From an uncultured Planctomycetales bacterium (lineage in GTDB: Bacteria; Omnitrophota; Gorgyraeia; Zapsychrales; Aceulaceae), in contig CAZYOA010000005.1 of NCBI GenBank assembly GCA_964648665.1, forward strand, positions 22,822-86,821: a stretch of 64,000 nt of DNA, written 5' to 3'. How positions within the stretch are numbered: position 1 is the stretch's first letter; every line of letters starts with the position of its first letter. Shown here piece after piece: positions 33,142 to 61,186 of this stretch. The notes under the pieces were generated by a model. The model worked only from the letters and a program-made list of their open reading frames with translations. It searched no databases and was not told where the DNA came from. The position numbers were made by a program, and so were the translations under genes.

Positions 33142-34209
33142 ATGGAGATTATGATTTTAGTTTTAGTATCCATTGTGTGCCTTGTTGTGGGTATTTCATT
33201 TGTGTTTAAAGGATTTTTGTCTGTTCCGGATAAGAATCAAATTGTGGATCGAAAGTCTTTTGAAGAAAAAGAAAAACAGCTTCGCCTCACTCAAGAGTCA
33301 GAACAAAAGATAAAAAAGGAACTTGAAACATTTAAAGTTGAAATTGAAGTGTCTAAAGAAAGTCTGGAGCTTACTAAGAGCCAAACTGAGAAAATACAGA
33401 AAGATCTTGAGCTTGCAAAGGCTTCAGCTCAGCAGATTGAGAATGAATCTGAGGGAAAGCTGGAAAGCTATCAAAGTCAAATTGAGTCTTTGAAAAAAGA
33501 AAGCGCTGAACTTAAAGAAAAGGCTGTTGAGGCACCTGAAAAGATTTCTGAGCTTGAAAAAGAGATGACAACAATTATTGAGAAAACAAATCAACAAGCT
33601 GACGGCGCTCTCGAGCTGATTAATTCGCTTCAATCTGAGCTTGAATCTTCAAAGCAAAAAGAGCAAGATTATCAGAGCAAGATGCAGTCTCTAGAAGAAA
33701 AAGCTTCAAGCTCTGAGGAAAGCCAAAAGGTTGTTGAGGAGTTAAATCAAGAAAATCAGCGATTAAAGCAAGAAAATGAATCTGTAGAATCTAAATATAA
33801 GCAAGAAATAGAAGATCTTAAGAAGACTCAAGATAGTGCAATGTCTCTTGAGGGTGAGAACCAAATGCTTCAGCAAAAGGTTCAAGAGCAGCAGACAAAG
33901 ACTCAAGAGCTAGAAGAGCAGTCGCTTTGCTTAAAGCAAGAGAATGAAGCTTATTCGAGTCAAATAACAGAAAAAATTTCTGAGCTTGAAAAAGAAAAAA
34001 TGATGCTTCAGCAAAAAATGGCTAATGTTGAACCTCAAGATTCTGATCAGCTTGATGAGCTTAAGAAGGAAAATCAAGATCTCGAGGAACAAAATCAATT
34101 GGCTCAATCTGAATTTCTTAAGGCTAAGACACGCGCTCAAGGGCTGGAGAAGATTTGCGCTGATTATAAAATACAATTAGAGCAATCGTTTAAGAATATT
34201 AATACTTAG
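33142..34209 (+). CDS. Membrane-anchored coiled-coil protein (E/Q/K-rich)
   Basis: One N-terminal TM helix (ILVLVSIVCLVVGISFVF) followed by about 320 aa of heptad-like E/K/Q/L-rich sequence. The last roughly 95 aa are duplicated in ORF 42475-43029. Confidence 0.7.
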   Translation: MEIMILVLVSIVCLVVGISFVFKGFLSVPDKNQIVDRKSFEEKEKQLRLTQESEQKIKKELETFKVEIEVSKESLELTKSQTEKIQKDLELAKASAQQIENESEGKLESYQSQIESLKKESAELKEKAVEAPEKISELEKEMTTIIEKTNQQADGALELINSLQSELESSKQKEQDYQSKMQSLEEKASSSEESQKVVEELNQENQRLKQENESVESKYKQEIEDLKKTQDSAMSLEGENQMLQQKVQEQQTKTQELEEQSLCLKQENEAYSSQITEKISELEKEKMMLQQKMANVEPQDSDQLDELKKENQDLEEQNQLAQSEFLKAKTRAQGLEKICADYKIQLEQSFKNINT

Positions 34210-34216
34210 AGATTTT

Positions 34217-34630
34217 ATGACCGGTAATTATTTACAGATACTGAGAGTGGGCCACCAGGCTGTTGTTTGTGCAATTGATCAAACGCAGCTTTTTTTAAGA
34301 TCTTATAAGCAAGCAAAGCCGAGAATTAGAGGTTTAGAAGAACAGCTTCTTACGTTCTTTGCTCAACAAGATAAAGCGATGTTTGATACGCTTTATGATT
34401 TTTATGAAGGTGATCGAGAGTCAGCAAAGATGATTGATTTTATTTTCCATGATCTTAAAGATATCAAGGTAAAATATTTAATGTTTTTTGATAAGCATAC
34501 CGGAGAAGCTTATGATACGTCTGCAGCATCGTTTCCGAAAGATTTTATGGATTTTTCAGGGCAGATTCTTTCAAGGCTTAGAATCGAAGAGGAGTATCTT
34601 TTTCCGCTTCTTAAGAAAATGAACTCTTAA
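34217..34630 (+). CDS. Hypothetical 137-aa protein, cassette component (weak hemerythrin-like resemblance)
   Basis: Paralog of 43042-43455, about 70% identical by eye. The C-terminal IEEEYLFPLL recalls the HxxxEE..LFP motif of hemerythrin-like domains, but the expected His is absent, so the assignment is weak. Confidence 0.55.
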   Translation: MTGNYLQILRVGHQAVVCAIDQTQLFLRSYKQAKPRIRGLEEQLLTFFAQQDKAMFDTLYDFYEGDRESAKMIDFIFHDLKDIKVKYLMFFDKHTGEAYDTSAASFPKDFMDFSGQILSRLRIEEEYLFPLLKKMNS

Positions 34631-34675
34631 AATCGCAAAAGTTGCATTGATTTGGGTTTTTGCTATAATACGCAT

Positions 34676-35080
34676 ATGAAAAATAAATTTTTATTTCTTA
34701 TTTTATGTTTTAGTTTAATTGGATGTTCTCATGTTATGGAGATTCCAAAAACAATTTGGGGTTCTTCTACAAGAGCGCTTGAAAATTATCGTCACACAGC
34801 AACAGTTAAAGGGTATCCTTTGACTTTAGAAGAGTGCTTTGATTCTATCTTGTTGATTGCGGCTGAATCTGAGCTTGATATCTTTATTCAAGATCGAAAA
34901 CGTAACATCATTGTCTTGATGGGATTTGAAGGTGTGACAGACACAACTGAGGTTGGTATATTTTTAACCGCTATTTCTATTAATGAAACAAAATTTGAAA
35001 TTGTTTCCTTAAGCTCCATTGCTCAAGCTACAGCAGCAGATCTTATTTTCTTACAACTCAACGAAGAAATTCTGGAATAA
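34676..35080 (+). CDS. Lipoprotein, cassette component
   Basis: MKNKFLFLILCFSLIGC lipobox signal. Paralog of 43499-43912. ATG at 34676 preferred to the ORF-track TTG at 34652. Confidence 0.65.
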   Translation: MKNKFLFLILCFSLIGCSHVMEIPKTIWGSSTRALENYRHTATVKGYPLTLEECFDSILLIAAESELDIFIQDRKRNIIVLMGFEGVTDTTEVGIFLTAISINETKFEIVSLSSIAQATAADLIFLQLNEEILE

Positions 35081-35084
35081 ATAA

Positions 35085-35600
35085 ATGGTAGAACACGAGC
35101 TTCTTTTCTTGGGACTTCTTATGAAGGGCCCAAAGCATGGCTATGAAATTAAACGTCAGTTAGAAGAAGAGCTGTTTCCTTTCTTAGGGCTAAAGGTTAA
35201 ATCTATTTATTATCCTTTAAAGAAAATGGAAAAGCTTGGTCTTTTAAAGAAAGACATTGGCAGAGAAGGCAAGTTTCCAGAAAAGTTTATTTATAAGATT
35301 ACAGATAAAGGAAAGAAGATTTTTGATCATCTCTTGACCGAGAACTTTCTTTCTATTGAAAGGCCATATTTCAATGTTGATCTTTCACTGTATTTCCTGC
35401 CTTATGTGGATAAAAAAATCGCAAAAAGACGCCTGCGTGCTCGCGTTATTTTCTTAAAACGTATCAAGAGAGATCTTGAATCCATCAAGGAAAATCTTAA
35501 AAGAACCTCAAAACACCTTATCATCATTCTTAATCATGACCTTGATCTCGTCGAGGCTGAAATTAAATCTATCTCAAGCCTGATTGAAACAATTCAATAA
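35085..35600 (+). CDS. PadR-family transcriptional regulator (copy 1)
   Basis: N-terminal winged HTH typical of PadR (LLFLGLLMKGPKHGYEIKRQLEE...YYPLKKMEKLGLL...YKITDKGKKIF) plus a C-terminal helical dimerisation region. About 88% identical (hand count) to 43914-44432. Confidence 0.8.
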   Translation: MVEHELLFLGLLMKGPKHGYEIKRQLEEELFPFLGLKVKSIYYPLKKMEKLGLLKKDIGREGKFPEKFIYKITDKGKKIFDHLLTENFLSIERPYFNVDLSLYFLPYVDKKIAKRRLRARVIFLKRIKRDLESIKENLKRTSKHLIIILNHDLDLVEAEIKSISSLIETIQ

Positions 35601-35658
35601 AATCTTTTTTTTATCATAAATTCTTTTATTTTAAGAGTTATGATCTTTTGTTTTAAGC

Positions 35659-35716
35659 AAGCGCTTCCTCGAAAGTCGCGTTTTGGGGATGTTTTTTAAT
35701 ATTTAGATGCTATATT
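35659..35716 (+). promoter_or_regulatory. Degenerate palindrome (AAGCGCTT) plus extended -10 (TGcTATATT) upstream of giant gene 1
   Basis: Homologous to the 44511-44574 and 61123-61186 regions. The palindrome centre is about 48 nt upstream of the -10 hexamer in all three. Confidence 0.4.
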
Positions 35717-35831
35717 TAATTTAGCGATGTGTCTTTAATCAAAAACGAAAATAATCCACTGTTGTTATAGAAACGGATTTTTAAATAAAGTAGAGTTTCT
35801 TTTACGCACAAAAATAAAGAAAGGTACATTC

Positions 35832-38800
35832 ATGTTTTTCTTGCCACGGAGAAAAATACTGTACAGTGCTAAAAAAGGTGTCTCGGTTTTCGTTGCCATA
35901 TGTTTTTTATCGATGACACTTCTTCCTAGTATTGCTCTCGCCCAAAGTGTTGCAGGTCTACCTATCCCAGGAACATTGCTCGCCACGACATCAAGCTTTA
36001 CGCCTTTGATGCTTCGCGGTATTCAAATTAATCCAGAAAATCCTTTTGAATTTAACTTCCTTTTAGATACAGGGTCAGATTCTCTTAATCAAGATGAAAT
36101 CAAAAGTCAATCTGAAACAATTGCAAAATATTTCTTATCCACTCTAACGATTCCAGAAGAAGATCTTTGGGTAAACCTTTCTCCTCATGAAGAAAATCGC
36201 ATTGCTCCTGACGCTTTATCTCAAACAGATATGGGCCGAGATCTCCTAGCACAAGATTATATCTTAAAGCAACTGACGGCTTCTTTAATCCATCCAGATG
36301 ACGAAACAGGTAAAGTGTTCTGGAAAAAGGTTTATAAGAAAGCCTATGAAGAATATGGCACTACCCAGATTCCAGTCGATACCTTTAATAAGGTATGGAT
36401 TGTTCCTAATAAAGCAACAATCTACCAAGAAGGCAACAGAGCCTTTGTAGCTGAAAGTTATATGAAGGTTATGCTAGAGACTGATTATCTCGCGCTTGAA
36501 AAGAGTGCAGAGTCCCAAGGGGCGAGGGATGCAGAATCTAAAGCCGATAATGCACTAGCTTCCCAAGTTGTTCGAGAAGTCTTGATCCCCTTATTAGAAA
36601 AGGAAGTCAACGAAGGCAAACTATTCTCTAAGCTTCGACAAATGTACCATTCTATGATTTTAGCCACCTGGTATAAGCAAAATCTAAAAAGTTCTATTAT
36701 TAATAAAATTTATTCTGATCAAAGCAAAGTGAAAGGTGTTGAAACCCCTGACCCAGAGATTGTGAATAAAATCTATGATCAGTATTTAGAAGCCTTTGAT
36801 AAAGGGGTTTGTGATTTAATAAAGAAAGAAAAGGATCCGGTTACCGATAAGGTGTTCTTTAGAAAGTATTTCTCAGGCGGCTTTGATGCCAAGGCGATTT
36901 CATCCAATATTAAGGTTAAAAGTTCTCCAAGATTTAGGAGTGTTGTGGTTAGAAATATTGTTGGTATGGTTTTTTCGGCGGTGTTTATGCTTATGAGCCC
37001 TACACATTTATTGGCTCAATCTCAAGCCAGTCCAGCCTCTGAAACTTCAGTAAATCTGGATGATGATATTTTTAAGATGAATGACTACTTTTTTTATGAG
37101 ACTGAGGCTGAAATAATATATGGTCGAGGTAGCGGACAAGGTCTTGCGGATCCAGAACACCTTGAAGATGTTGCTGTTGATAGTGATGGCAATATTTGGC
37201 TTGTTGACTATGAAGGTGATCAGGTCATTGTGATTGATAAAAAGACAGGAAAACCAAAGATTGTTGATCGAAAATTCGAATCGCCCGCTGGCCTTAGAAT
37301 TGATGAGGAAGACAACATTTGGATTGCGGAATTTTATGATGGCAAGATTGTGATGCTTGATAGAAAAACAGGGGAGTGGATTTTCAAGGGAACATTTAAT
37401 CATCCTAGCGACATTGAATTTGATGATAAGGGCAATGTTTGGGTTTCGGAGTGGGGTTCTGAATATATTTGGATGATGAATAAAGAAACAGGAAAAAAAG
37501 AGATTGTCGAAGAAGGTTTTGAGATGGTTAATGATATTGCCTTTGATCAGGATGGTAATCTATGGATTACTGATTTTAAGAAAGGCTGTGTTTTTATGAG
37601 AGATAAAACAGGAAAGCTGGATGTTGTTAAGCGAAACTTAAACAGTCCTAGAGATGTTGCAATTGACAATGAAGGTAATGTTTGGATTGCTGAAGAAGAA
37701 GCTGATCGTATTTGGGTACGACTTAAAAACACAGGCGAGTGGAAAATTTTTCCAATGGAATTTAGCCGTCCTTATGGAATTGCTTTTGATAATCAAGGAA
37801 ATCTTTTAGTTTCAGAAACCAGCGGTAAGTGTCTTAATCGTATAAAGAAGACTTTTTTGCCTTTGCCTAACATTAGCATTCAAGGAATAAACATACCTAA
37901 AAGCAATCTCGATTTTTCTGCAGCAACAATTACGAGTACTATCGAGTTAGATGACATTGTTCGCGTTGTTGGTCAACCAACAAATATTAAGAATACGATT
38001 TATTTTGATTATCACTCAGGCTACGAAAGAGGAGAAAACGGAAGAACAAAAGTCAGAGCTGTTGGCCGATGGAATCGTGATTATCCTGATCGACCAGAAC
38101 GTAATCCTCGCGGGTGGCTTAAGAAAGTGACTCCTAAGGATTATGTTGTTGATGAAAATGGAGAAATTCAGATTACGAAGCCGTTATTTAAAGAGATTGA
38201 GATTAGAGAGCTCATGAAAGAAGATTTCGCTTTTATTCAAGATCGCTACGATCAAGCATTTAATGTTATGGACAGCGATGTCTTAACGGCTAAAAATCAC
38301 CTGAATCAAGCTCGAGTACGTCTCGAGCAGCTTATTAAAAAGTTATCAGCAGAAACATCTATGGATAATCGCGAGCTAGTGTTTGAGTCATTAGATAAGA
38401 CAGTGGATGTTATCCGCGGTGATTTGGAAGCTGTTGAGAATTTTGAAAAACACGGACAAATTATTGTTAGTGTTCATGAAAAAATTAATAATTTTAATAT
38501 TATTTTAAAAGAAGGTACTAGTAGTGAAGCAAGAAAAAGGGAGGCAGAAAAATCTTTAAATGGCCTACTTAACTCCTTAACACAAAATCAAGATATTCTT
38601 AAAGACTATGGCTATGATACAAAACATGCTATTGATTTTTTGAATAAAATTGCAAAAGGATTTGATATTAATAATTTTACATCAACATCTTCTAAGAGTG
38701 ATGCGCAATCATTGAATCAATTTGAGCAATCAACCAACTCTGAGATTCTAAAATCTATTGCCGAGGGTGATGTTTTTGGCATTGAAGATAAAAATGGTTT

Positions 38801-41800
38801 TACAGCTTTTGAAACCAATACGCCTGAACAGAAACATCTTGCGCGAGAAGTTATCACGAATGCCTCAAATACTCATCAGGATTTATCGGTCTGGGTCAAG
38901 AATCCAGAATCTAAAAAAGGTGAGCTTATTGCTATGAATCCGAATTCCACAAGAACAGCTGCATCTTCTTCCATAGCGTCATCCGCTTTAAAAGCTTTAA
39001 AAAAGACAGCTAAAATTGCTGTGATGATTTCTGTTTTTGCCTTATCTTTTTTGGTTCAGAGCTGCGCCCAAGAATCTAATAAACAGGTTCAAAAAAATGT
39101 TCATGATCTTTTAGACTTGCCAGGAACGGAAACCCCATCTGTTAATACCTCGATACAGGAACTTGCTAAAGACTATCTTTGGAAGGCTCCTGCAATAGAT
39201 TCATTGGACGCCTTTGTTGCGCGTTGGCCTTATAGCCTAGATGGTCGTAACGCTCAAGAGAAGGTCGAAGTTTTATCTCATTATATTAAGAATGAATTGG
39301 GCGTTTTGTCTTTAGGCAACGACGATTCTGATTTGACACAAAAAGGTGAAGATTTTCAGCCCAGGAAAGGTCGAGACTTAACATATGTTGCACAAAGTAA
39401 AGCCGCTGTATGCACAGGCTTTGCTCGATTAGGGTTTTTCTTAGGTAATTATTTAGGTATTCCTAATCAAACATTTCGAGCTTCTGATCAAAAGCAGGGT
39501 GATTTTGATCATGAAATTAATATCGTTTTTTCTGACGGGAAGGCAATTATATGGGATATGTCGACAGGTGTTGAGCAAAGCATTGTTAGCAAGCCTTTTG
39601 ATTTTGATGAATATTATCAAAAAATTGAGCTAGGCGATGGAGAATTCGAATATGTTCTTCGCCCTGGAAAAACATTTGATTTCTTAATTGAAAAGCAGTA
39701 TGAATATCCTGGAAATTTAAGTGATATTTATACTCGGATAGCTCCATGGTTTGCTCATGATGTTAATCAATTAACAGATTTGATTAAGAAATATGAAAAT
39801 GAAATTCAGGAGTTATATTCTAACGCGATTGACGTGTATAATTCAGGAGATTATGAATCCGCACAAAAACTTTTTTCTGAAATTCATCTTCAAGCCGAAA
39901 CTCTTTTTACTGTTAATTTCAAGAATTCGGCTGTCAGAGAAGTTATCACAGACTCTGATGAATCGGTAAAAAAGTATTATATTTTATTGTCGGAATCAAA
40001 ATCTTTAGATTTAGCCATTGGTGATTATCTCAAAGGAAATCGAGATCAGGCAAGTATGCCGCCGATAGAAAAGAATCAATTTGGAGTTTGGTATTTTTCA
40101 GAACAAACCAGAAATATTCAAAACTCTATGCAAAGAAGCGCCGAGTTGTTTGAGCAACAGAAATTTGAACAGGCCAAAGAAGAAATAGAGAATTATCAGA
40201 AGATTGCTCTAAAATTAAAAACTGATATTTCCGATAGAGGGCTTTCAAGAATTTTAGTTGATCCGGCTCCTGTCCTTCAGGAGATTGATGGCATCATTGG
40301 TGCAAGTTATCAGAATATTAAAGCTTGTGAAATGGAAATCGAGAGGCAAAAAGACAGAACGTATTATTGGGATGGAAAATCTGATGCAAAAGATAATAAG
40401 AATGCAAAGGTTTCAAGTAGTTCGCTAACGGTAGCTTTAAAAGGTTTTAAAATAGCTATGGCTACATCTATGGCAGCTGGATTTTTATCATTTTTACCAC
40501 TTCAATTCTTTGGGCAAGATAAAAATAATGAGAATCTTGTTGTTGATGGAAACTTTAATGTTTCTTGGCCTTCTGCTTTTGGAACGCCAGACTTTAAACG
40601 TGGGAAAATGTTGATGATTTCGTATTACGTTGGAGGAAAGGGGAAAAAGGGTGAAGGTGTTTATAGTAAAATAAAAGCCAATCAAGGCGTTTATCATATT
40701 AGCTTTGATTATATTGTTAAGCCAGCGCATAGAACATATTCTGAGCGTAATAATATTAATATTTGTCTTTTTAATAAAGTTTCACATCAACCAAATGGTC
40801 GTGTGCAAGAAGTTGTTCCTAAATATCTAACGAAAGAGGGAGGCGCGTATATAATTTATAGTGAAGAAAATATTGAAGCAGATGGAAAGTCGCGACATTT
40901 TGAGGGATATTTCTGTATACCTGCGAATCAATCGTATCAATATGTGGGTATTTATCCGACTGTTGATAAAACTCCAGGAGTAAGCAAGTCGATTGTAGGT
41001 ACAGTTTTTGATGATTTGACTATTACTCCTTTTTCAATTGATAAGATTCCTGAACATAAAATAGATATACCTAAAAGTGATCTTGATTTTTCTGCAGCAA
41101 CAATTACGAGTACTATCGAGCTAGACGATATTGCTCGCGTTGTTGGCAAGCCAACAGCTATCAAAAATACGATTTATTTTGATTATCACTCAGGTCATGA
41201 AAGAGGAGAAGATGGAAGGACAAAGGTTAGAGCTGTTGGTGTATGGAACCGTGACTATCCTGATCGACCAGAGAGGACTCCTCGTGGGTGGCTTAAGAAA
41301 GTAACTCCTAAGGATTATGTTGTTGATGAAAATGGAGAGATTCATATTACAAAGCCGTTATTTAATGAAATTAATATCAAAGAGCTCATGAAAGAAGATT
41401 TTGCTTTTATTCAAGATCAGTATGATCAAGCATTTGATATTTTAAATAAGAATGTTGTAGCATCTAAGAATCATTTAAATCAAGCGCAGATACGTCTGGA
41501 TCAAGTTGTTAGAAAGTTATTAGCAGAAAAAGATGTTGATAATATTGAGGCAGTGTTTGAGGCGCTAGATAAAATATCTGATGTTATTAGTGGCGATTTA
41601 GAAGCCATTGAGAATTTTCGAATACAAGGGGAGACTCTTGCCGATATGCAAATGAAGGTCAATGAAGTTAATGCTGCTTTAGAAGAAGTCACTGCTGCTT
41701 TAGAATCTGATATTGATACTGATTCTCAAAAAAGTCGAGCAGCAAAGGCTTTTAATGATGCCATTGCTGTTATATCTGAAAATAGCTTATTATTAGAGAA

Positions 41801-42455
41801 GTTAGATTATGATGCTCAGAAAGCTGTTGTTGTTATAGAGAATATTTTACGAAGATTAGGTATTGAGAATTTTTCATCAAAACCTTCTAACAATGATGCA
41901 CAATCAATGAATCAATTTGAGCAATCACCTGATTTTGAGATTCTAGAATCTATTGCTCAGGGTGAGGTTTTTGGCATTGAAGGCAATAGCGGTTTTACAT
42001 CGCTTGAAACTAAAACCCTTGAACAGCAACATCTTGCACGAGAAGTTATTTTGAATGCCTCAAATATTCATCAGGATTTATCGGTCTGGGTAGATAATCC
42101 TGAGAAAAACACGCTTGAGCTTATTTCTATTAATTCGAATGCGTATGAGAGCGGGAAGACGCGTACAACCGCCTCATCAAATGTTGGTGGAATTGATCTT
42201 AATGCTCAATATTTGGATCTTAAAACTCAAGGCATAGATATGGATTTTGAACTGCCTTTAGAATGGCAAGGAGTGGATCTTAGTAATGTTCCTGGCCTTA
42301 TTCCTGTATTTATTCAAATTACACCTGTTATCAACTTTCCTGCTTTTGTTGCAGGAGAAGAAGACATTGAAAATAACAATGCTGCATTAGCATTTCATCA
42401 ACCTTTAATTGAACAAAAGAAGGATTTTATAGTAAAAAAAGAATTTAATATTTAA
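35832..42455 (+). CDS. Giant family protein 1 (2207 aa), composed of several distinct modules
   Basis: Uninterrupted 6.6-kb ORF with an AGAAAGG RBS. In order it contains the family N-module, a six-bladed propeller and repeat unit R1. These are followed by a lipobox-like TM, a transglutaminase-like core, another TM, a beta-rich region, repeat unit R2 and the family C-module. N- and C-termini are shared with the 44726 and 54534 genes. Confidence 0.9.
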   Translation: MFFLPRRKILYSAKKGVSVFVAICFLSMTLLPSIALAQSVAGLPIPGTLLATTSSFTPLMLRGIQINPENPFEFNFLLDTGSDSLNQDEIKSQSETIAKYFLSTLTIPEEDLWVNLSPHEENRIAPDALSQTDMGRDLLAQDYILKQLTASLIHPDDETGKVFWKKVYKKAYEEYGTTQIPVDTFNKVWIVPNKATIYQEGNRAFVAESYMKVMLETDYLALEKSAESQGARDAESKADNALASQVVREVLIPLLEKEVNEGKLFSKLRQMYHSMILATWYKQNLKSSIINKIYSDQSKVKGVETPDPEIVNKIYDQYLEAFDKGVCDLIKKEKDPVTDKVFFRKYFSGGFDAKAISSNIKVKSSPRFRSVVVRNIVGMVFSAVFMLMSPTHLLAQSQASPASETSVNLDDDIFKMNDYFFYETEAEIIYGRGSGQGLADPEHLEDVAVDSDGNIWLVDYEGDQVIVIDKKTGKPKIVDRKFESPAGLRIDEEDNIWIAEFYDGKIVMLDRKTGEWIFKGTFNHPSDIEFDDKGNVWVSEWGSEYIWMMNKETGKKEIVEEGFEMVNDIAFDQDGNLWITDFKKGCVFMRDKTGKLDVVKRNLNSPRDVAIDNEGNVWIAEEEADRIWVRLKNTGEWKIFPMEFSRPYGIAFDNQGNLLVSETSGKCLNRIKKTFLPLPNISIQGINIPKSNLDFSAATITSTIELDDIVRVVGQPTNIKNTIYFDYHSGYERGENGRTKVRAVGRWNRDYPDRPERNPRGWLKKVTPKDYVVDENGEIQITKPLFKEIEIRELMKEDFAFIQDRYDQAFNVMDSDVLTAKNHLNQARVRLEQLIKKLSAETSMDNRELVFESLDKTVDVIRGDLEAVENFEKHGQIIVSVHEKINNFNIILKEGTSSEARKREAEKSLNGLLNSLTQNQDILKDYGYDTKHAIDFLNKIAKGFDINNFTSTSSKSDAQSLNQFEQSTNSEILKSIAEGDVFGIEDKNGFTAFETNTPEQKHLAREVITNASNTHQDLSVWVKNPESKKGELIAMNPNSTRTAASSSIASSALKALKKTAKIAVMISVFALSFLVQSCAQESNKQVQKNVHDLLDLPGTETPSVNTSIQELAKDYLWKAPAIDSLDAFVARWPYSLDGRNAQEKVEVLSHYIKNELGVLSLGNDDSDLTQKGEDFQPRKGRDLTYVAQSKAAVCTGFARLGFFLGNYLGIPNQTFRASDQKQGDFDHEINIVFSDGKAIIWDMSTGVEQSIVSKPFDFDEYYQKIELGDGEFEYVLRPGKTFDFLIEKQYEYPGNLSDIYTRIAPWFAHDVNQLTDLIKKYENEIQELYSNAIDVYNSGDYESAQKLFSEIHLQAETLFTVNFKNSAVREVITDSDESVKKYYILLSESKSLDLAIGDYLKGNRDQASMPPIEKNQFGVWYFSEQTRNIQNSMQRSAELFEQQKFEQAKEEIENYQKIALKLKTDISDRGLSRILVDPAPVLQEIDGIIGASYQNIKACEMEIERQKDRTYYWDGKSDAKDNKNAKVSSSSLTVALKGFKIAMATSMAAGFLSFLPLQFFGQDKNNENLVVDGNFNVSWPSAFGTPDFKRGKMLMISYYVGGKGKKGEGVYSKIKANQGVYHISFDYIVKPAHRTYSERNNINICLFNKVSHQPNGRVQEVVPKYLTKEGGAYIIYSEENIEADGKSRHFEGYFCIPANQSYQYVGIYPTVDKTPGVSKSIVGTVFDDLTITPFSIDKIPEHKIDIPKSDLDFSAATITSTIELDDIARVVGKPTAIKNTIYFDYHSGHERGEDGRTKVRAVGVWNRDYPDRPERTPRGWLKKVTPKDYVVDENGEIHITKPLFNEINIKELMKEDFAFIQDQYDQAFDILNKNVVASKNHLNQAQIRLDQVVRKLLAEKDVDNIEAVFEALDKISDVISGDLEAIENFRIQGETLADMQMKVNEVNAALEEVTAALESDIDTDSQKSRAAKAFNDAIAVISENSLLLEKLDYDAQKAVVVIENILRRLGIENFSSKPSNNDAQSMNQFEQSPDFEILESIAQGEVFGIEGNSGFTSLETKTLEQQHLAREVILNASNIHQDLSVWVDNPEKNTLELISINSNAYESGKTRTTASSNVGGIDLNAQYLDLKTQGIDMDFELPLEWQGVDLSNVPGLIPVFIQITPVINFPAFVAGEEDIENNNAALAFHQPLIEQKKDFIVKKEFNI
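37893..38960 (+). repeat. Intragenic repeat unit R1 (about 1.06 kb) of giant gene 1
   Basis: IPKSNLDFSAATITSTIELDD...RAVGRWNRDYPDRPERNPRGWLKKVTPKDYVVDENGEI...GDVFGIEDKNGF...HQDLSVWVKNPE is repeated 3174 nt (1058 codons) downstream. Confidence 0.9.
41067..42180 (+). repeat. Intragenic repeat unit R2 of giant gene 1
   Basis: IPKSDLDFSAATITSTIELDD...RAVGVWNRDYPDRPERTPRGWLKKVTPKDYVVDENGEI...GEVFGIEGNSGF...HQDLSVWVDNPE. The first roughly 130 codons are near-identical to R1; the rest is more diverged. Confidence 0.9.
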
Positions 42456-42474
42456 ACAACAGAAAGGTGCATTT

Positions 42475-43029
42475 ATGTTTTTCTTGCCACGGGGAAAAAT
42501 GTTGTACAGTGTTAAAAAAGGTGTCTCAGTCTTTGTTGTCATATGCTTTTTATGGATGACGCTTTTTCCTAGCATTGCTCTCGCTCAAAGCGTTGTCGGC
42601 CTGCCTGTTCCAGGGGCCATCTTGAACATAACATCAAGCTTTACGCCTTTGATGCTTCGTGGTATTCAAATTAATCCTAAAAATCCTTTTGAATTCAACT
42701 TTCTTTTAGATACAGGTTCTGATTCTCTCGATCAAGATGAATCATTCCGCTTAAGGCAAGAGAATGAAGATTATGCCAAGCAAATCAAAGAAAAGATTTC
42801 TGGTTTAGAGAAGGAAAAAGTTTTGCTGGAACAAAGGATGAGCACTGTTAATCCGCAAGATTCTGTGCAGCTTGATGAGCTAAAGAATCGCAATGCGCAG
42901 CTTCAGGATCAAAATAAGTTTGCTCAGTCTGAATTGATTAAGACAAAAGCTCGTGCGCAGGGCTTGGAAAAGATTTGTGCGGATTATCAAACACAGTTAG
43001 AAGAAACTTTTCGCAATATAAAAACTTAA
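42475..43029 (+). CDS. Chimeric ORF: giant-family N-terminus (about 88 aa) fused to a paralog of the coiled-coil protein C-terminus (about 96 aa)
   Basis: Residues 1-88 align with giant 1 residues 1-88 (MFFLPRGK...LLDTGSDSLDQDE). Residues 89-184 align with the end of ORF 33142-34209 (...RAQGLEKICADYQTQLEE). The junction is near nt 42740. May be expressed or a recombination relic. Confidence 0.6.
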   Translation: MFFLPRGKMLYSVKKGVSVFVVICFLWMTLFPSIALAQSVVGLPVPGAILNITSSFTPLMLRGIQINPKNPFEFNFLLDTGSDSLDQDESFRLRQENEDYAKQIKEKISGLEKEKVLLEQRMSTVNPQDSVQLDELKNRNAQLQDQNKFAQSELIKTKARAQGLEKICADYQTQLEETFRNIKT

Positions 43030-43041
43030 ATTTTATTCTTT

Positions 43042-43455
43042 ATGACTTTTAATTATTTGCAGATATTAAAGGTTGGACATCAAGGCATTGTTGTTGCCAT
43101 TGATCAAACACAGCCGTTTCTTCGATCATATAGGGAAGCTCGATCAAGAATTATTAGCTTAAAAGAACAGCTTTTAGTTTTTCTTAGCCGTCAAGATAAG
43201 CGTATGTTTGATGAACTTTACGCATTTCATAAAGGAGATAGGCAGTCGACAAAGATGGTTGACTTTATTCTTCATGATTTAAAAGATATTAAGGTAAAAT
43301 ATTTAATCTTTTTTGATAAACATTCTGGAGAAGTTTTTGATACAAGTGCAGCGTCTTTTCCGAGAGATTTTTCGGATTTCTCGGCACAAATAATAGGAAG
43401 ATTAAAGATTGAAGAAGAATATTTGTTTCCACTTCTTAAAGAAATGAACAGATAG
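43042..43455 (+). CDS. Hypothetical 137-aa protein, cassette component (paralog of 34217-34630)
   Basis: Same length and collinear similarity (MT.NYLQIL.VGHQ...DLKDIKVKYL.FFDKH...IEEEYLFPLLK). Confidence 0.55.
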   Translation: MTFNYLQILKVGHQGIVVAIDQTQPFLRSYREARSRIISLKEQLLVFLSRQDKRMFDELYAFHKGDRQSTKMVDFILHDLKDIKVKYLIFFDKHSGEVFDTSAASFPRDFSDFSAQIIGRLKIEEEYLFPLLKEMNR

Positions 43456-43498
43456 GTAGGGAGTTGCAACCAGAAAGGATTTTGCTATAATAGCGATT

Positions 43499-43912
43499 AT
43501 GAAAAATAAAATTTTGTTTGTTATTCTTTGTTTTAGTTTCATTGGATGTGCCCGGTTGATGGAGATTCCAAAATCAATTTGGGGGTCTTCAACCAAAGCT
43601 TTGGAAGAGTATCGTTCTACGGCAATGGTTAAAGATTATCCGTGTGCGCTGGATAGTTGTTTTGACGATATTCTTAATATTGCTAGCGAATTTGAGCTCG
43701 ACATTTTTATCAAAGAGAGAAGGCGTAAGCTTATTGTTTTAATGGGATTTGAGGGAGTGACAAATACCACAGAAGTTGGTATTTTCTTAACGCCGATAAC
43801 AGATGTTCAAACAAAACTCGAAGTTGTTTCGCTAAGTTCTTCGGCTCAGCGAATCGCAACAGAGCTTATCTTTTCACAATTAGACGATAAATTCTTAGAA
43901 GAAGAGCAGTAA
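43499..43912 (+). CDS. Lipoprotein, cassette component (paralog of 34676-35080)
   Basis: MKNKILFVILCFSFIGC lipobox. Shared IWGSST.ALE.YR, LDIFI and IVLMGFEGVT.TTEVGIFLT blocks. Confidence 0.65.
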   Translation: MKNKILFVILCFSFIGCARLMEIPKSIWGSSTKALEEYRSTAMVKDYPCALDSCFDDILNIASEFELDIFIKERRRKLIVLMGFEGVTNTTEVGIFLTPITDVQTKLEVVSLSSSAQRIATELIFSQLDDKFLEEEQ

Positions 43913-43913
43913 T

Positions 43914-44432
43914 ATGATTGAGCATGAATTGCTTTTTTTAGGACTCTTAATGGAGGGCCCAAAGCATGGCTATGAAATTAAACGTCAGCTAGAAGAAGAA
44001 TTGTTCCCTTTTTTAGGCTTAAAGGTCAAATCTATTTATTATCCTTTAAGAAAGATGGAAAAGCTTGGCCTCGTTGAAAAAGATGTTGACCGCGAAGGAA
44101 AATTTCCTGAGAAGTTTGTTTATAAGATTACCTCAAAAGGTAAAAAGATCTTTGATCATCTTTTGACTGAGAATTTTCTTTCCATTGAGCGACCGTATTT
44201 TAATGTCGATCTCTCGTTATATTTCTTGCCTTATGTGGATCAAAAAATTGCTAAGAGGCGTCTGCGCGCGCGGGTTATTTTTCTTAAGCGTATCAAGCGC
44301 GATCTTGAATCCATAAAGAAGAATATTAAAAAAGCTTCCAAACACCATATTATTATTTTAAACCACGACCTTGACCTTGTTGAGGCTGAAATTAAGTCTA
44401 TCGAGCAACTCATCGAAACATTTACTTCATAA
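43914..44432 (+). CDS. PadR-family transcriptional regulator (copy 2)
   Basis: About 88% identical to copy 1, with the same winged-HTH motifs. Confidence 0.8.
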   Translation: MIEHELLFLGLLMEGPKHGYEIKRQLEEELFPFLGLKVKSIYYPLRKMEKLGLVEKDVDREGKFPEKFVYKITSKGKKIFDHLLTENFLSIERPYFNVDLSLYFLPYVDQKIAKRRLRARVIFLKRIKRDLESIKKNIKKASKHHIIILNHDLDLVEAEIKSIEQLIETFTS

Positions 44433-44510
44433 TATCCTTTAAATCTTAAATTTCTTATCTTCCTTGGAATTAATTATTTTTTATTTTTCATTATTTTCCG
44501 TTTCTCTCGT

Positions 44511-44574
44511 CTGAGAAAGCGCTTTCTTAGAATACCTGGTTTTCTGTTGTTTTGGTGATTTATCATGCTATACT
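44511..44574 (+). promoter_or_regulatory. Near-perfect 20-bp palindrome CTGAGAAAGC|GCTTTCTTAG plus extended -10 (TGcTATACT) upstream of giant gene 2
   Basis: The 14-bp core AGAAAGCGCTTTCT (44514-44527) is a perfect inverted repeat. The 24-nt string tctcgtctgagaaagcgctttctt is identical at 61117-61140. TATACT lies at 44569-44574. Confidence 0.5.
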
Positions 44575-44725
44575 TTATATAATTCACAAGCAGGCATATT
44601 TATAGAAATTTGGCCCTTCCAAAGAATTAGCTCTCTGTCGGGGTAGGTAGCACAATTTTTTTAAATCGAATGGGAGTGCACAAGTAGATGCACTAACAAA
44701 TCTTTATCATAAGAAAGGTACACTC

Positions 44726-47700
44726 ATGTTTCTCTTACCACGGGGAAAAACACTGTATAATATTAAAAAGTTTGTTTCATTTGTTGTTTTTGTATGTTTT
44801 TTATGGATGACACTTTTTCCAAGCGCTGTACTCGCTCAAAGCGTTGCAGGTCTTCCGATTCCAGGAACACTGCTAGCATCCACACCCAGTTTTACTCCTT
44901 TAATGCTTCGTGGTATTCAAATTAACCCTAAAAATCCTTTTGAATTTAACTTTCTTCTAGACACAGGAACAAGACACCTTTCTCAAGATGAAATCAAAAC
45001 CCAATCTGAAACCATCGCGAAATATTTTTTATCAACAGTCACGATTCCAGAGGAAGATCTATGGGTCAATCTTTCTCCTTATGAGAAAGACCGAATCGTT
45101 CCTGAGGCTTTATCTCAAACGGATATGGGCCGTGATCTTTTAGCTCAGGATTATATATTAAAGCAGCTAACTGCTTCTTTAATTCATCCAGATGATGAGA
45201 CAGGCAAAGTGTTTTGGGAAAAAGTTTACAAAAAAGCTTATCAAGAATATGGAACAACGAACATTCCAGTTAATACTTTTAATAAGGTGTGGATTGTCCC
45301 TGATAAAGCCACAGTTTACCAAGAAGGCAATAGGGCCTTTGTAGCTGAGAGCTATATGAAGGTGATGGTGGAGGAAGACTTCTTGGCTAGACAAGTGAAT
45401 AGCGAAAAGTCGTTAGTGAATAGTAAGAAACAGCAGATGCAGAATGTCGATGGTCATTTACAAGATGCTATTGCTCAAGACATTGTCCGTGAAGTTCTAA
45501 TTCCCTTATTAGAAAAGGAAGTCAATGAGGGCAAGCTTTTCTCTCAACTTCGACAAATGTATCATTCCATGATCTTAGCTACCTGGTATAAGCAGAATCT
45601 CAAAGGTTCCATTATTAATAAAATCTATGCGGATCAAAGCAAGGTTAAGGGGGTTGAAACTCCTGATCCAAAGACTGTTAATAAGATCTACGACCAATAC
45701 CTAGAAGCCTTTGAAAAAGGGGTTTGCGATATCGTTAAAGTTGAGTATGATCCTAATACTCAAAAGAATGTACCAAGAAAATATTTTTCAGGTGGATTTG
45801 CTGCGAGTGCAATCTTATCTAGATTTAAGGTTAGCCGCTCTTCAAGAAGATTTCGTAAAACAGTTGTTAATTCGGTTGTTGGCTTTGTTTTTATGGCTAT
45901 ATTTGCGCTGTCTTCGGCCGATAGTCTTCAAGCGCAGATAGTGGATCGATCCTCACAAAATCCGATTGAAAAAACATCAACCAAGCCCAACGAGGTGAAA
46001 CCGAGTCCTTTTGGCAAACCGGTGCCTGCGTTGCCAGAAATAACTCAGAGTGAAATTGATCAAATTATGGGTCGTTTTAAGTTTGAATATCCTAAAAAAT
46101 TGAGCTCGTCAGATCAGCCGCCAGAATTTCCTGTTAAGGTAACTCCAAACTTTGGATCAATTCCTTTGCCTAAGATGATACCGCTTAAGCTAGGTGCGAC
46201 TGAGAAATTAATATTAATCGACACCTTAAGCATACCGCGCATTAATGTTTCTGATTCTACAAAAGAGATTAATATCGACCCGCTTATTAAGAAATTTGGG
46301 CTTCATTGGTATTCAGTTGAGGAAAAACCAAAAGAAGGCGTAATTGTAAAAGAGAAGGTTTCAGAAATTACAGAAAAAATAAACGATAAGTATATTTTTG
46401 GATCAAAATCGGGCAATAAAATAGCGGATATTTTTATCCGCGTGCATACTTCTAAGGGTGTGTTTAATTTGCCAGGTATAGAAAATCCTAAGATGAAGCT
46501 TCTTCCGACTTCACTAGGGACAGACGAAGAATGGTTTAAAGCGCAGATTACCAAACAAGAAGGGGTAGACAATCTAACTTTTAAGAAATTTTCATTACTT
46601 AGAAACACAAATTTTATAGTAGAGAAAGACACAAACTTTTTAGATCTTCATATCGATGACTTAGCCAAATCTTATGATAAGGATGTTAAGGCTATATTAG
46701 TTGTTGCGTTAGATAATTTTAATAACGCATTTAATATAGACAGTCTTTTATATACCTTTGAGCTACTCGATCAAATACCTCAGGTGGACATACCTGGACC
46801 ATCAGAAGAAAATATTGAGAGACTGTTAGAGCTTCGGGATTCATTTTCTGAAACAGGGGAGTTAGAAGTAGGTACTGTTACGATGAAATTTGAAAAATAT
46901 GATCTTTCTCAAAAGATGCCTTCACCGATTGATGTTTCTACTGAAAGGGGAGAAGGATTTATTTCCGCAAAAGGAGCTTTTTCAGAGCTATCTTTTTTGC
47001 CAAAGAGTTCTTTGTTGAATGATCTTTCTGGACCATTAGGTGATTTTTCGCAAAAGAAGAAGAATGTGGATCAACTAAAAACTTTGCCTTCAATTACTTC
47101 TCAATTTATCCCTCAAAAGGATATTCTTAAGGAAGATTTGCCTGACATCCCGTTGTTATCTAATTTGTCTTCGCCTGAGAATCCTAATATAGGCAATGAA
47201 AAGGAGTTATTACTTCCCATGCTAATTCCAGATTTAGTTCTTCCAGAGCTAAATATTGATGAGATCAAGGATTTTCCTGAGGGAGATTTTGAATCTCAAA
47301 AACCATTGATTCCAGACTTTGGTGAGCAAAAAGAAATTTATTTTCATATTGTTGATTCGGTTTCGGAAAATGCTTTTTTTCAAAAAGCCCCTGAGAACGA
47401 AAATTTGTTACCGGAAGATACAGAGTTTATTCGTACGCACTATACAGAAGCTGTAAAGAACATGAAGAATAAGCAACATGAATTGTCGAAACAAAATCTT
47501 GTTGAGGCAAAAAATAGCATCTTTGATTTACTTGAACGTTTGAAAAATGCTGATGCCAGCGATTCGCAAGCATCAAAAGATTGGCTAAGCAATGCTTTAT
47601 TAGCACTTACCGAAGTATCGCTAAAAAATGAAGAATTTCTTATTTTAGAGGAACTGAAGGTGGCTTTTGACACTCTAGGTGCTGGCAATGTTGTGGAGGC

Positions 47701-50700
47701 TCTGCAACATTACGAAAATGCAAAGCAAAAGCTAGATGATGTAATCAAGTTCCTTAAAGATAATCCCATTGATTTAGAGGGTGCCGATCAGCAACGCCAA
47801 CGTTTTGAAACAGTTCAAAGCGATGTCCAGAAGAAAATAGATGCATTAGGCAAATATCAAGGTGACTCTAAGACACGCGTGCAGCAAAACCAAGAATTTG
47901 AACGTATAAAAGAAAAATGGTCTCAGGAAGTTTTTTCTTTAGATTCTTTGCAGAAGCAATATTCAGATTCATTGAAGAATTCTCAACCAGAAATATATGA
48001 AGAAAGTTTGAAAAGAATCCTATCGAAACTTGATTCGCTCACAACTCTTGTTCAGCGCAATAAAAAAAGAATTGCAAATGAAAAGACGACACAAGATTCT
48101 TTATCGAAACTCTCAACCGCTGCTGAGAATATAATTCAAAAAATTCATAACTATAAAAAAGCTTTAAAATTTTATGATGAAGGACAGAAAAAAGTTAATT
48201 TATTAAATGCCCAGCTACTCAAAGACATAGAAGAAATAAGATCAAAGTATTCTGTAGCATTTTCTTCTGCTCAGCAAAGAGAGTATCAAGGCGCTTCCGA
48301 CAGTATTTCCGCGGCTAAGGAGATTCGAGCGTTGACTTCTGCCGCTTTAGACTCTGCGGAAAAATTTGGCCTAACTATTCCAAATTCAACACTAGATTCT
48401 CTCGAAGAAATTAGGGATATTTTGCAAAGAAAATACGAAGAAGCCAGATCCCTTCAAAATCAAAAGACTAACCATGATACACAACTTTCTGATTTTGATT
48501 CTTCTGTTAAGAAGCGATTTAATCGTTGCAAATACTCGTATAAGCTTGCTGCTGAAGATATTGAACTGGCGATTGAAAAAGATACTGCAAATTATGTAAA
48601 ACATTTTAAGAATGCTAAGCAGAACATTGTCGATGCTCAAGATTCGATAGCCAGCCTTAGAGCAGATCTAGTTCAATTTATCGATATGGATGGAACTAAG
48701 GATATTCTTAAGGTTGCAGATGAACTTCTTGACCTGGTGGATAATGCTGCCATCAGCATTCCATTGTTGGAAAATAAATATAAGCATTATCGAAATGTTC
48801 AGATAGAAATTGCACATTTGAACGAAATGATTGCGACTCGTTCTGCGGTTGTAAAAGCTGCAGATAGTTTGGCTAATCAGAAGATTAATCAAAACAAGGA
48901 AATATATATAAAGGAAGACTATTCGGTGGCTGAGGCTGCTATTCAAGAGGCCAAGAATTATTCTGATTCTATCGTTGCTAGTTTGTCAGCGGCTAAATAT
49001 GCCAGCATCCCTAATGCTATGATGACGTTTTATAAAGATCGTCAAACATATTTTAGTGAATTGCTTGAAGTTTTTCAGGATTATCGAATAAAAAAAGACG
49101 AAGAACAGGAAGTTGTGGACGCATATAATTTTTTGTTGGAAAGTGACAAAGCGAAAATTGTAGATTTTAACAAATTAGCTTTTGCAGAGCTTGATAAAGC
49201 GAGTGAAGGCAAGTCGGTCAATTATTCTCAGGTTTTTAAGCTTTTTTCTACTGCCGAAAAGAATTTTATTAATTTGATAGAACGAACAAAGCAACTAAAA
49301 GAACAAAGTGATCGCCCAGACGTTATTCAGAAGATTATTGAATCTCAAGAAAAAACTTTGAGTGATTTTAGAAAAATGCAACAGGTTATCAAAGGTGAGG
49401 AAGGAACAGATCTCTCAGACGTTAATAAAAGAATTCAGAATGCTAAAGTAAATTTTATAAAAGGCTGCGAGTTTAGTCTTAATAATGGTATTAAAAATCT
49501 CAAAACTGGAAAACGCACGAGGGCTGATGATTCTTTTAAATTAATAGATCAACAAATAGTAGAGCTTAAAAGATTTGCTAAAGAAACAAGATCTACGGAA
49601 ATTTTTGACTCATTAATAAAGGTGTCAGATCAAAAAAGCATTCAATTAGCTAAGATTCTTAAAGATATAGAGGATGAGCGCAACGCGTTTGTATATGCGC
49701 CTAGAACTGTTTTGCTTAGGAAGCTAGGGCCTGTGATATATGGAGGTCGTTATAAACGAGGTGGGATCAAAGCAAATAAAAGCTCTGCAGATAAGTATAT
49801 TTCTTATGGCGCTTGGAAAGCCGCTTTGCAAGAGCTTGGTAATGTTAGGAAGCTTATAGAAAGGGCAAATATAATTTTAGAGGAGGATCAATATAAAGAT
49901 GTTGAGGATATCGATACGTTTAAAAATATTTTTTCTTCTGTTGAAAATATCAGAAATAATTTATCTTCAAAATTAGAAGAATTTGATCAATTCTATTCTG
50001 TCTCATTTAGCCCAAAAATATCAAAAATTCGTGAACATTTCAAAAAGGAGAAAGAATTTCGTTATAATGGACAATTTTCTGAATCACAAAAAGAACTTAT
50101 CGCAGCAAAAGACATGATTCAATCTTTGATTGATGAATCATCTAAAAACCAGAAGGTAAAATTATCCGAGGCCTTTAAATCATTATTATTTCTTGATTTG
50201 CAAGCCATCGATGCTCTTTACAAGAAAATAGAAGATTTAGAAACGCTTGATGAAGAAATGAAGGTGCTGCAGGATTCGACACAGAATGCAGGAGATGGTT
50301 ATCGGAATTTAATCCTTATTTTAAACAGAGATCAAGATGTTAGACGTGCGATGATGAATTTTAATATTTTAGTTTCGCGTCTCGAAAAAGTAAACCAACA
50401 GATTAAAAGTGGCAAGATGAGCTTTTCAAAGCCGGTTGAATATAATTTTGAGATGTCGTTCAAGAATCTCAAAGCCATGCGTTCTCATCTTTTTGAAACA
50501 GATTTGGTTTATCATATTTCTTCTGATTTTAATGAAAATGTTGTTTTGCGCAATACAGAATTAGATCTATTGCAAGAGAAAATTTTAAATTATGACAACA
50601 TTGTAACTGGTTTGCGTAAACGTTATCAAGGCGTCCAGGATGCTGCTTGGAATTTTAAAGAACGCGTTAAAGAAAATTCTTCGGAGAAACAAGAACCCGC

Positions 50701-55079: not shown

Positions 55080-55102
55080 ATACCTTTAATAAAGTCTGGA
55101 TT

Positions 55103-61048: not shown

Positions 61049-61122
61049 GGTAAGTTTTAGGAAGTTTTTAGTTCTTTGGAATTATTTTTTTACTATTTTT
61101 AGTTATTTTTAGAAGTTCTCGT

Positions 61123-61186
61123 CTGAGAAAGCGCTTTCTTGAATCGTCGGTATTGGGGTTTATTTTTATTATTTCTCAGGTATACT
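61123..61186 (+). promoter_or_regulatory. Palindrome CTGAGAAAGC|GCTTTCTTGA plus -10 TATACT upstream of giant gene 4
   Basis: Same 14-bp perfect inverted repeat (61126-61139) and the same spacing of about 48 nt to the -10 (61181-61186) as upstream of giant gene 2. Confidence 0.45.

Follow-up and report, generated by a model that had tools for sequence, protein, structure and literature searches.

How did the same block of small genes come to stand twice, in the same order and on the same strand, within a row of large genes? The question arises from 64,000 nucleotides (nt) of DNA from a member of the Omnitrophota (contig CAZYOA010000005.1 of assembly GCA_964648665.1), the whole of which we call the window. 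The block consists of the 3' end of a coiled-coil gene (cc), a gene for a protein of 137 amino acids (aa), a lipoprotein gene, a gene for a PadR-family regulator, a promoter region and the N-terminal module (N-module) of a large gene. Our results support a model in which the first occurrence, copy A, is the resident block and the second, copy B, may have come from a sister clade of the window lineage. What looks like a pair of paralogues is then better read as a resident and an import, a distinction that matters for duplication-based dating or for the ratio of nonsynonymous to synonymous divergence (dN/dS).

The window is part of a 207,702-bp source contig (k141_802883 of ENA ERZ27317826) that ends inside the large-gene array, at about window position 69.8 kb. 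The 137-aa protein has its homologues in Omnitrophota, among them Candidatus Aceula lacicola (lac; 74%), Candidatus Aceula meridiana (mer; 62%) and the metagenome-assembled genome (MAG) GCA_028693815 (PHY; 77%). The window genome is close to Candidatus Aceula, a genus of Omnitrophota described from Ace Lake, Antarctica (PMC8542988).

Comparison of the window with itself by blastn aligned the two copies collinearly, in the same gene order and on the same strand, at 72.4% over 3193 columns (E=0). The initial annotation had recognised this twofold block at 33931-36890 and 42751-45805, and the blastn ends lie slightly beyond those positions on both sides. It had further noticed that the ribosome-binding site (RBS) and first 88 codons of the first large gene, G1, recur immediately to the left of copy B, where they open a chimeric open reading frame (ORF); both observations hold, and the join that it had put near 42740 falls at 42733-42741. 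Pairwise alignment shows that the similarity spans four ordinary coding regions (dN/dS 0.03-0.14) and is not confined to low-complexity sequence. The features on which the argument turns are the following:

33914..36991, + strand: copy A, cc 3' end through 137-aa, lipoprotein and PadR genes and promoter region to N-module, by blastn; the putative resident copy
42734..45909, + strand: copy B, truncated at its 5' end inside cc, by blastn; of sister-clade affinity by phylogeny, ratio tests and sliding-window identity
42454..42741, + strand: relic, RBS plus first 88 codons of a G1-type large gene and left half of the hybrid ORF; 84.4% over 288 nt to 35812-36098 by blastn
42475..43029, + strand: hybrid ORF of 184 aa; signal peptide of a large gene with 50 further residues, continued in frame by the final 96 residues of a coiled-coil protein
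42733..42741, + strand: junction, by codon-level comparison; its CAAGATGAA (Q-D-E) recurs unchanged at codons 86-88 of the large-gene N-terminus

The layout invites the interpretation first given to it, that of a simple segmental duplication. It resembles a tandem segmental duplication with a chimeric ORF in its direct collinear copies, its one new in-frame junction and its hybrid ORF; unlike such a duplication, the copies here are not each other's closest relatives and their synonymous sites are saturated. In a species tree built from five flanking housekeeping genes upstream of the block (1820 aa), lac and PHY were joined with 100% bootstrap support and the window fell outside them (window-lac 0.198, window-PHY 0.185, lac-PHY 0.136). 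In an alignment of the cassette itself (cc 3' end, 137-aa protein, lipoprotein and PadR; 533 aa), copy A was as far from copy B (0.301) as from lac (0.304) and PHY (0.301), whereas copy B lay at 0.187 from PHY and 0.214 from lac, with lac and PHY 0.216 apart. The grouping of B with lac and PHY was recovered in 95.6% of protein bootstraps and in 99-100% of nucleotide bootstraps, that of B with PHY in 88.7% of the protein replicates, and that of A with B in 0.2% and 0-0.1%, respectively. A tree of all 137-aa homologues placed copy B in the same way, and in a sliding 200-nt comparison running from the cc 3' end to the end of the lipoprotein gene copy B was always nearer to PHY and lac than to copy A; in PadR all pairs converged near 80%. 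Copy B thus groups with sister-clade orthologues, and the duplication as first proposed, with A and B together in at most 0.2% of bootstraps, does not stand.

Distance ratios scaled to lac-PHY also separate the copies. Copy A (1.40 [1.17-1.68]) matches the flank (1.41 [1.28-1.57]), while copy B falls at 0.92 [0.79-1.08], and P(R_B >= R_W), the probability that the ratio of copy B reaches that of the window's flank, was 0/2000 bootstraps. From this match, in which the flanking genes lie on the upstream side only, we infer that copy A is the resident block. The neighbour-joining trees, read against this one-sided flank, argue for a foreign, sister-clade origin of copy B.

Could copy A instead have been duplicated in place, in this lineage, and then have evolved faster or under relaxed constraint, so that B merely looks foreign? 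This would be the simplest event, and copy A does carry more autapomorphies (23 against 10 in B) and more changes in the relative-rate count (A vs B 37:23). That excess is modest and not significant (chi-square 3.3), and the corresponding count for B vs PHY is 16:16. Root-to-tip distances are clock-like (A 0.094, B 0.094), and the outgroup distances of A exceed those of B, lac and PHY by just 5-10%. Four-point and neighbour-joining methods do not assume equal rates, and with them A and B come together in at most 0.2% of replicates. In addition, the rooted stem of (B, lac, PHY) is significantly positive, at 0.038 [0.021-0.056], and A matches the flank ratio exactly. We regard an accelerated copy A as highly improbable.

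A second possibility is that the duplication is real and old. A tandem duplication whose unit began within cc and reached codon 88 of the following large gene would have occurred in the ancestor of the window and lac/PHY lineages and been kept only here, lac and PHY having collapsed to the B-type block. We consider this fairly unlikely. It predicts a B ratio of about 1.41, which the observed value and its bootstraps reject under rate constancy; lac and PHY exclude B with a support of only 2-13%; and the agreement between A and the flank is what a plain orthologue would give. Identical tandem copies are unstable, and persistence to a synonymous divergence (dS) above 1.6 without collapse or conversion would be special pleading. 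On the other side stand the saturated synonymous sites between A and B, which imply an old split, the ease of direct-repeat deletions, and the finding in a small sample that the cc 3' end of A is more diverged from lac/PHY than the cc 5' part is, when scaled to lac-PHY. The tandem layout itself also suits an old duplication, having one new junction and a second homologous set of large-gene end, 19-nt spacer and start at 54240-54558. There the end of the second large gene, G2, the spacer and the start of the third, G3, match 42181-42499 (the final 275 nt of G1, then the 19-nt spacer and relic start) gaplessly at 86%. Tandem duplication of the whole unit as the sole event, with the relic copied from the G3 start, was considered and rejected: the relic resembles the G3 start at only 55% nt (38% aa), as against 84% nt for G1.

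The junction is consistent with the trees. The hybrid ORF reads ...CTC GAT CAA GAT GAA / TCA TTC CGC TTA AGG... across it, codons 86-88 of both G1 and G2 are CAA GAT GAA, and PHY cc has CTC CAA GAT GAG TCG ATT CGC TTA AAG at the homologous place. The first 8 nt of the junction CAAGATGAA, namely CAAGATGA, occur also in this sister-type cc allele, whereas the 8-nt match is absent from the window's own cc (GAA GAG CAG TCG) and from lac cc (AAG GGT GAG TCG). Since CAAGATGA is common only to the large-gene N-terminus and the sister-type cc allele, the crossover can be placed within it. As compared codon by codon, the junction fits both the phylogeny of copy B and a microhomology-mediated join; an old duplication would have to accommodate a match found only with the PHY-type cc allele. 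The hybrid product follows the same division: its residues 1-88 align locally with the N-terminus of G1 (76% aa), and its residues 87-184 align, without a gap, with the final 98 residues of the coiled-coil protein (62% aa).

The junction is very unlikely to be a local assembly error, for three contigs assembled from other samples or runs read across 42733-42741 (comparison contigs and loci carry L numbers): L017 (ENA ERZ27316756) at 99.98% over 39923-44532, L018 (Logan SRR8862237) at 100% over 41309-43983 and L039 (Logan SRR8862235) at 100% over 42648-43983. A protein identical to the hybrid product is present on 5 contigs. The hybrid ORF that opens copy B on its left is real, and the region is a recombination footprint, as the initial annotation had proposed. 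A different concern is that the source contig as a whole might be a chimera of two co-occurring Aceula populations, one contributing unit A and the 5' part of G1 and the other the junction, unit B and G2 to G4. Units A and B do differ in phylogenetic affinity, the other contigs examined stop or begin inside G1 (L001 stops at 37823, L002 stops at 37532, L017 starts at 39923), and the source contig is the only one among them all to bridge 37.8-39.9 kb. Nevertheless, the junction is no assembler join, since only 8-9 nt are shared there and three other assemblies contain it; whichever genome carries it has a truncated block after a G1-type gene and, the block being universal in the group, most likely a full copy too; and the internal repeats of G1, at 75% identity, are too diverged for a false join. 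In addition, the look-up index has, for PadR-A and for the hybrid ORF alike, one carrier contig of 50-200 kb and one of 0.2-1 Mb, as would be expected if another long assembly contained the two together. We therefore judge a chimeric source contig decidedly improbable.

Taken together, these observations lead us to favour, with about even confidence, a scenario in which copy B is a xenologue, an allele of this locus that derives from within the lac/PHY clade and was added by recombination with DNA of a congener. A resident array of the form cc/137-aa/lipoprotein/PadR/G1/Gx... would have met lac/PHY-clade DNA bearing the same locus. At the upstream end, the incoming cc would have been joined illegitimately, at CAAGATGA, to codon 88 of Gx, a resident G1-type gene 19 nt after G1, and the resident RBS and 88 codons would have been left as the front of the hybrid ORF. 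At the downstream end, homology within the large-gene N-module or further on would have resolved the exchange, with the B segment added and not swapped in. The incoming copy would have been about 25% diverged on arrival and hence stable against collapse by homologous recombination, for which a divergence of that size is too high to proceed readily.

Synonymous divergence along the locus agrees with such an event. The cassette (A-B dS at least 1.6) and codons 89-385 of the N-module (G1-G2 dS 1.5) are old and sister-like, in keeping with a donor-type origin, while the 88-codon relic (dS 0.54 to G1, dN/dS 0.17) and the G2 3' end (dS 0.62, G1 vs G2, over the last 92 codons) would be young resident paralogues of G1, as expected if the insertion broke a resident gene. 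The contrast between the N-module and the 3' end fits a crossover inside G2, for which no breakpoint has been mapped.

The closest described process is homology-facilitated illegitimate recombination (HFIR), reported in Streptococcus pneumoniae, Acinetobacter baylyi and Pseudomonas stutzeri, in which foreign linear DNA enters by homologous exchange at one end and by an illegitimate join at the other (PMC3240628). By analogy, and from sequence comparison only, the 8-nt match could be the illegitimate join and the shared N-module a candidate homologous anchor. However, at about 78% nt the N-module identity is low for an anchor, and the product here would be a net gain of several kb with a duplicated 5' stretch of 88 codons, not a short insertion with a deletion. 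If this account is right, the footprint would show, concretely and datably, how rows of large surface-protein genes assemble in Omnitrophota.

Several points weigh against the import of copy B. The trees are neighbour-joining only, the order within (B, lac, PHY) is not settled (B+PHY 59-89%), and strict synapomorphies are few (7 for B, lac and PHY, 3 for A and B, 2 for A, lac and PHY). The resident unit was recognised from upstream flanking genes alone. The sample includes no donor-like genome: even the nearest relative of B reaches only about 80% identity to it, in protein as in nucleotide sequence, and B itself is the sole cluster within 90% of its 137-aa protein. The downstream homologous crossover has not been located, A-B similarity ending where the conserved N-module ends, and the first 88 codons of G2 are nearer G1 (dS 0.81) than the rest of the N-module is, which a simple model does not predict. 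PHY has a gene of the type of the fourth large gene, G4, after its PadR, so that a donor order of PadR followed by a G1-type gene is hypothetical. Finally, linkage of A to B across 37.8-39.9 kb is seen only in the source contig; when G1 and the long G3 frame were looked up by exact sequence, neither was on record, and no independent contig linking the two was obtained.

All of the gene pairs compared are under purifying selection (dN/dS 0.03-0.17). This holds for the hybrid ORF as well (0.14-0.17, no relaxation), which is not proof of function, since most of the divergence could predate the fusion; the hybrid ORF is probably a by-product. PadR had been picked out as the best conserved member of the block, either constrained or homogenised between copies. 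The first alternative is the one that the data support. Between PadR-A and PadR-B dN/dS is 0.033 and synonymous sites are saturated (pS, the proportion of synonymous differences, 0.72), and the identity between the copies is no higher than that between species (85-91%), so that constraint and not homogenisation accounts for it. We accordingly rejected gene conversion between the two PadR genes. The identities between copies, which the initial annotation had counted by hand, proved close to the computed values given here with the genes of the core block:

33142..34209, + strand: cc, full length, 355 aa by translation of the ORF; N-terminal hydrophobic helix followed by a coiled coil; first core-block gene
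34217..34630, + strand: 137-aa protein, copy A; predicted helical bundle
34676..35080, + strand: lipoprotein, copy A, 134 aa from its ATG by translation and also in the L001 gene call; lipobox LIGC
35085..35600, + strand: PadR-family regulator, copy A, 171 aa; Pfam PF03551, E=2.4e-12, 47.1 bits vs a cut-off of 27
43042..43455, + strand: 137-aa protein, copy B; 80.3% aa to the PHY orthologue vs 72.3% to copy A
43499..43912, + strand: lipoprotein, copy B, 137 aa; lipobox FIGC; 81.6% aa to the PHY orthologue vs 67.9% to copy A
43914..44432, + strand: PadR-family regulator, copy B, 172 aa, full length with intact winged helix; 88.9% aa to PadR-A

Does the block belong with the large genes? The initial annotation had proposed an accessory cassette, a co-inherited module of small protein, lipoprotein and PadR that travels with giant genes. 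We compared 19 loci from GTDB species representatives and several metagenome contigs. The genes upstream of the block in the window are housekeeping genes, and an epimerase gene, cc and the 137-aa, lipoprotein and PadR genes are single-copy and keep their order throughout the relatives examined. An AMP-binding gene comes immediately after PadR, without a large gene, in 14 of the 19 reference loci; in lac (L003-L006), L013/L014 and L015 the genes after PadR are AMP-binding and methionine-salvage-like. Large genes with an N-module follow the block in the window, mer, PHY, L011/L012, L029 and L032 (PadR was not found within the 15.7-kb locus of L032). The 137-aa protein falls into 26 clusters, the N-module family into at least 1211. 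Synteny and cluster counts together make the block the core neighbourhood and the large genes a variable insert; the block is not a module travelling with large genes, the AMP-binding gene being the usual neighbour of PadR. On these gene orders, the gap between PadR and the AMP-binding gene is a conserved insertion site, filled in some lineages by genes for large secreted proteins with an N-module.

In several more distant Omnitrophota genomes the block is itself interrupted, with 1-7 kb of other genes separating its members (cc and the 137-aa, lipoprotein and PadR genes), which suggests that the neighbourhood is prone to insertion at more than one point:

L024 10400-12200; L026 3900-7600; L030 740-8240; L031 7200-10000 and 10940-12090; L036 4300-10000 and 10400-15560: block interruptions

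The window is not alone in carrying part of the block a second time. In Ca. A. meridiana, an open 3' fragment of PadR (L007:17837-18190; codons ~56-172, without the winged helix) lies between a G1-type and a G4-type gene. It is 94% identical in aa to PadR-B of the window and 90.5% to meridiana's own PadR, shares with PadR-B the C-terminal tail SIEQLIETFTS, and is preceded by the promoter and palindrome normally found before the AMP-binding gene. On this comparison the fragment is another partial re-copy of the core block, independent of the first, which brings the partial re-copies of the upstream block at the insertion site between PadR and the AMP-binding gene to at least two. The N-modules of the G4 type, recognised by a conserved 'MCDLK', also conflict with the species tree. 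Among those compared (window 61277-62431, L009 from 11674, L007 from 18598, L011 from 10747; labels merb, PHYa and L11a in the relatives), G4 and merb are 82.6% identical, PHYa and L11a 87.6% and G4 and PHYa 79.8%, a pattern that suggests exchange of large-gene alleles between species. With the meridiana fragment, it indicates a site that repeatedly exchanges DNA between species.

Arrays built by successive horizontal additions at a conserved anchor have been described for orphan immunity genes of the Vibrio cholerae type VI secretion system (T6SS) and for C-terminal displacement in Rhs and contact-dependent inhibition (CDI) systems (PMC5361080). The window locus is similar in that truncated remnants are left and members are closest to those of other strains or species and not to their neighbours. 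It differs in what is left and what is added: there, 3' toxin tips and immunity genes remain, lying behind a 5' region that stays constant, whereas here the remnant is a 5' end (RBS and 88 codons), the added piece is a truncated upstream regulatory block, and no toxin or immunity function is evident. One could go further and propose that the block and its PadR-proximal promoter form a dedicated landing pad, and with it the regulatory cassette, for genes of N-module surface proteins swapped between related Omnitrophota species, with PadR serving both as homologous anchor and, acting through the palindrome AGAAAGCGCTTTCT, as regulator of any large gene that arrives. The locus would then be a surface-variation system whose logic is comparable to that of Rhs or T6SS effector arrays. 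We think this quite unlikely.

The regulatory sequences bear on that proposal. Three intergenic regions in the window carry a promoter before a large gene:

35601..35831, + strand: upstream of G1; degenerate palindrome AGCAAGCGCTTCCT at 35656-35669 and -10-like box TGCTATAT
44433..44725, + strand: upstream of G2; perfect palindrome AGAAAGCGCTTTCT at 44514-44527 and -10-like box TGCTATACT
61049..61276, + strand: third promoter-bearing region, upstream of G4; perfect palindrome at 61126-61139

Allowing up to 2 mismatches, AGAAAGCGCTTTCT occurs 3 times in the window (35656, 44514, 61126), each time upstream of G1, G2 or G4, against a chance expectation of 0.63. In these regions the palindrome, AGAAAGCG(C/T)TTTCT, stands about 45 nt upstream of a TGnTATACT box. 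The region before G2 also has an AT-rich block of the kind seen upstream of G4-type genes. In relatives, the palindrome is present at L007 11445 and 18451, L009 11526, L011 10600 and L032 11152, and it precedes most of their N-module genes that have an upstream region of their own, including that of L032, where PadR was not found; L029 has no exact match. The palindrome is a candidate operator. It appears to mark promoter-bearing N-module genes in this group, which is directly testable. G3 and the hybrid ORF start 19 nt past the preceding stop, and no palindrome or promoter region is found there; through the addition of copy B, G2 and G3 may thus have gained a transcription unit of their own, with a second promoter and PadR.

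Both copies of PadR have the build of the family (PF03551), an N-terminal winged-helix PadR domain with a C-terminal helical extension, and both adjoin genes that they might control. Unlike typical family targets, the large-gene regions of the window lack the classical PadR dyad ATGT-N(6-10)-ACAT, which was absent from all ten intergenic regions tested, and the palindrome AGAAAGCGCTTTCT occurs also in L032. A generic promoter and terminator scan of 33.0-45.2 kb gave nothing above shuffled expectation. In genomes without large genes, a TTGACA-N17-TATTAA promoter and a different palindrome, ACTAGTAAAATTTTACTAGT, precede the AMP-binding gene, and Ca. A. meridiana (L007) has the same element directly behind its first large gene:

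L003 11386-11508; L013 11538-11711; L015 7285-7441; L007 ~17760-17810: TTGACA-N17-TATTAA / ACTAGTAAAATTTTACTAGT element

The large genes of the window form a row of four, all of them with an N-module:

35832..42455, + strand: G1, 2207 aa; signal peptide, N-module of ~385 aa, NHL-repeat beta-propeller region, internal repeat and C-terminal module
44726..54514, + strand: G2, 3262 aa; N-module 73% aa to that of G1
54534..61048, + strand: G3, starting 19 nt past the G2 stop; split into 54534-55079 and 55103-61048 by a 1-nt frameshift
61277..64000, + strand, running off the window: G4, 1718 aa in the source contig; conserved 'MCDLK' type

Besides the N-module, G1 and G2 have a C-terminal module in common (43% over about 290 aa); their middles cannot be aligned. 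Within G1 there is an internal repeat of ~1.06 kb (37886-38945 vs 41060-42140; 75.5% nt). The N-module (35832-36986 in G1) comprises a signal peptide, a conserved domain and a hydrophobic segment, and it recurs beyond G1 and G2 in G3 (from 54534) and G4 (from 61277). The clusters counted above for its family were collected at E<=1e-10, and those with a named source are nearly all from Omnitrophota. No Pfam family covers the module, and only a few homologues have Pfam domains elsewhere in the protein (NUDIX, HEAT, receiver). Pfam searches of G2, the longer G3 ORF (G3b), G4 and the related genes PHYa and mera gave no domains; among the large genes of the window that were scanned, G1 alone has NHL-type propeller repeats. 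From this distribution the N-module looks like a nameless, phylum-wide leader or anchor module. PHY and L011 both have a G4-type gene directly 3' of PadR.

The frameshift of G3 is a one-base shortfall in the A5 run at 55038-55042 (TACAAAAAGCC), which leaves ORFs of 181 aa and 1981 aa; adding one A there restores a single frame of 2171 aa. No contig other than the source contig was found to carry the 181-aa product, and the frameshift could be a sequencing error, a pseudogene or slippage.

Very long proteins are a known feature of Omnitrophota, and their origin and evolution have been left as an open question (bioRxiv 10.1101/2023.11.21.568195). G1 to G4 share with them the phylum, signal peptides, a multi-module build and N-terminal regions without known domains (10.1101/2023.11.21.568195; 10.64898/2026.06.07.730766). 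At 1.7-3.3 kaa (thousand aa) they are well under the classes of at least 10 kaa and at least 80 kaa in the latter work, and the name 'giant' that they had been given, if taken as the class of at least 10,000 aa, does not suit proteins of 2207, 3262, ~2171 and 1718 aa. A text search of the two preprints found no mention of 'PadR'.

The remaining observations concern the small genes of the core block and the far end of the window. Orthologues of cc (337-381 aa) occupy the same position in the relatives fetched, and its database matches are weak and of coiled-coil type only. The 137-aa protein has no Pfam or NCBIfam match at E<=0.01, and against solved structures profile search and Foldseek returned only generic helical bundles, none at E<=0.001. 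AlphaFold2 predicts five helices (pLDDT 91), and some homologues carry weak or faint precomputed matches to PF01814 (hemerythrin-like, HHE cation-binding). The lipoproteins are recognised as such by a signal peptide that ends in a lipobox with its cysteine, read from the translations as MKNKFLFLILCFSLIGC in copy A and MKNKILFVILCFSFIGC in copy B. Far upstream, the first ORF of the window (8-1270) contains a weak internal direct repeat, 720-998 vs 822-1100, with 64% nt identity at an offset of 102 nt.

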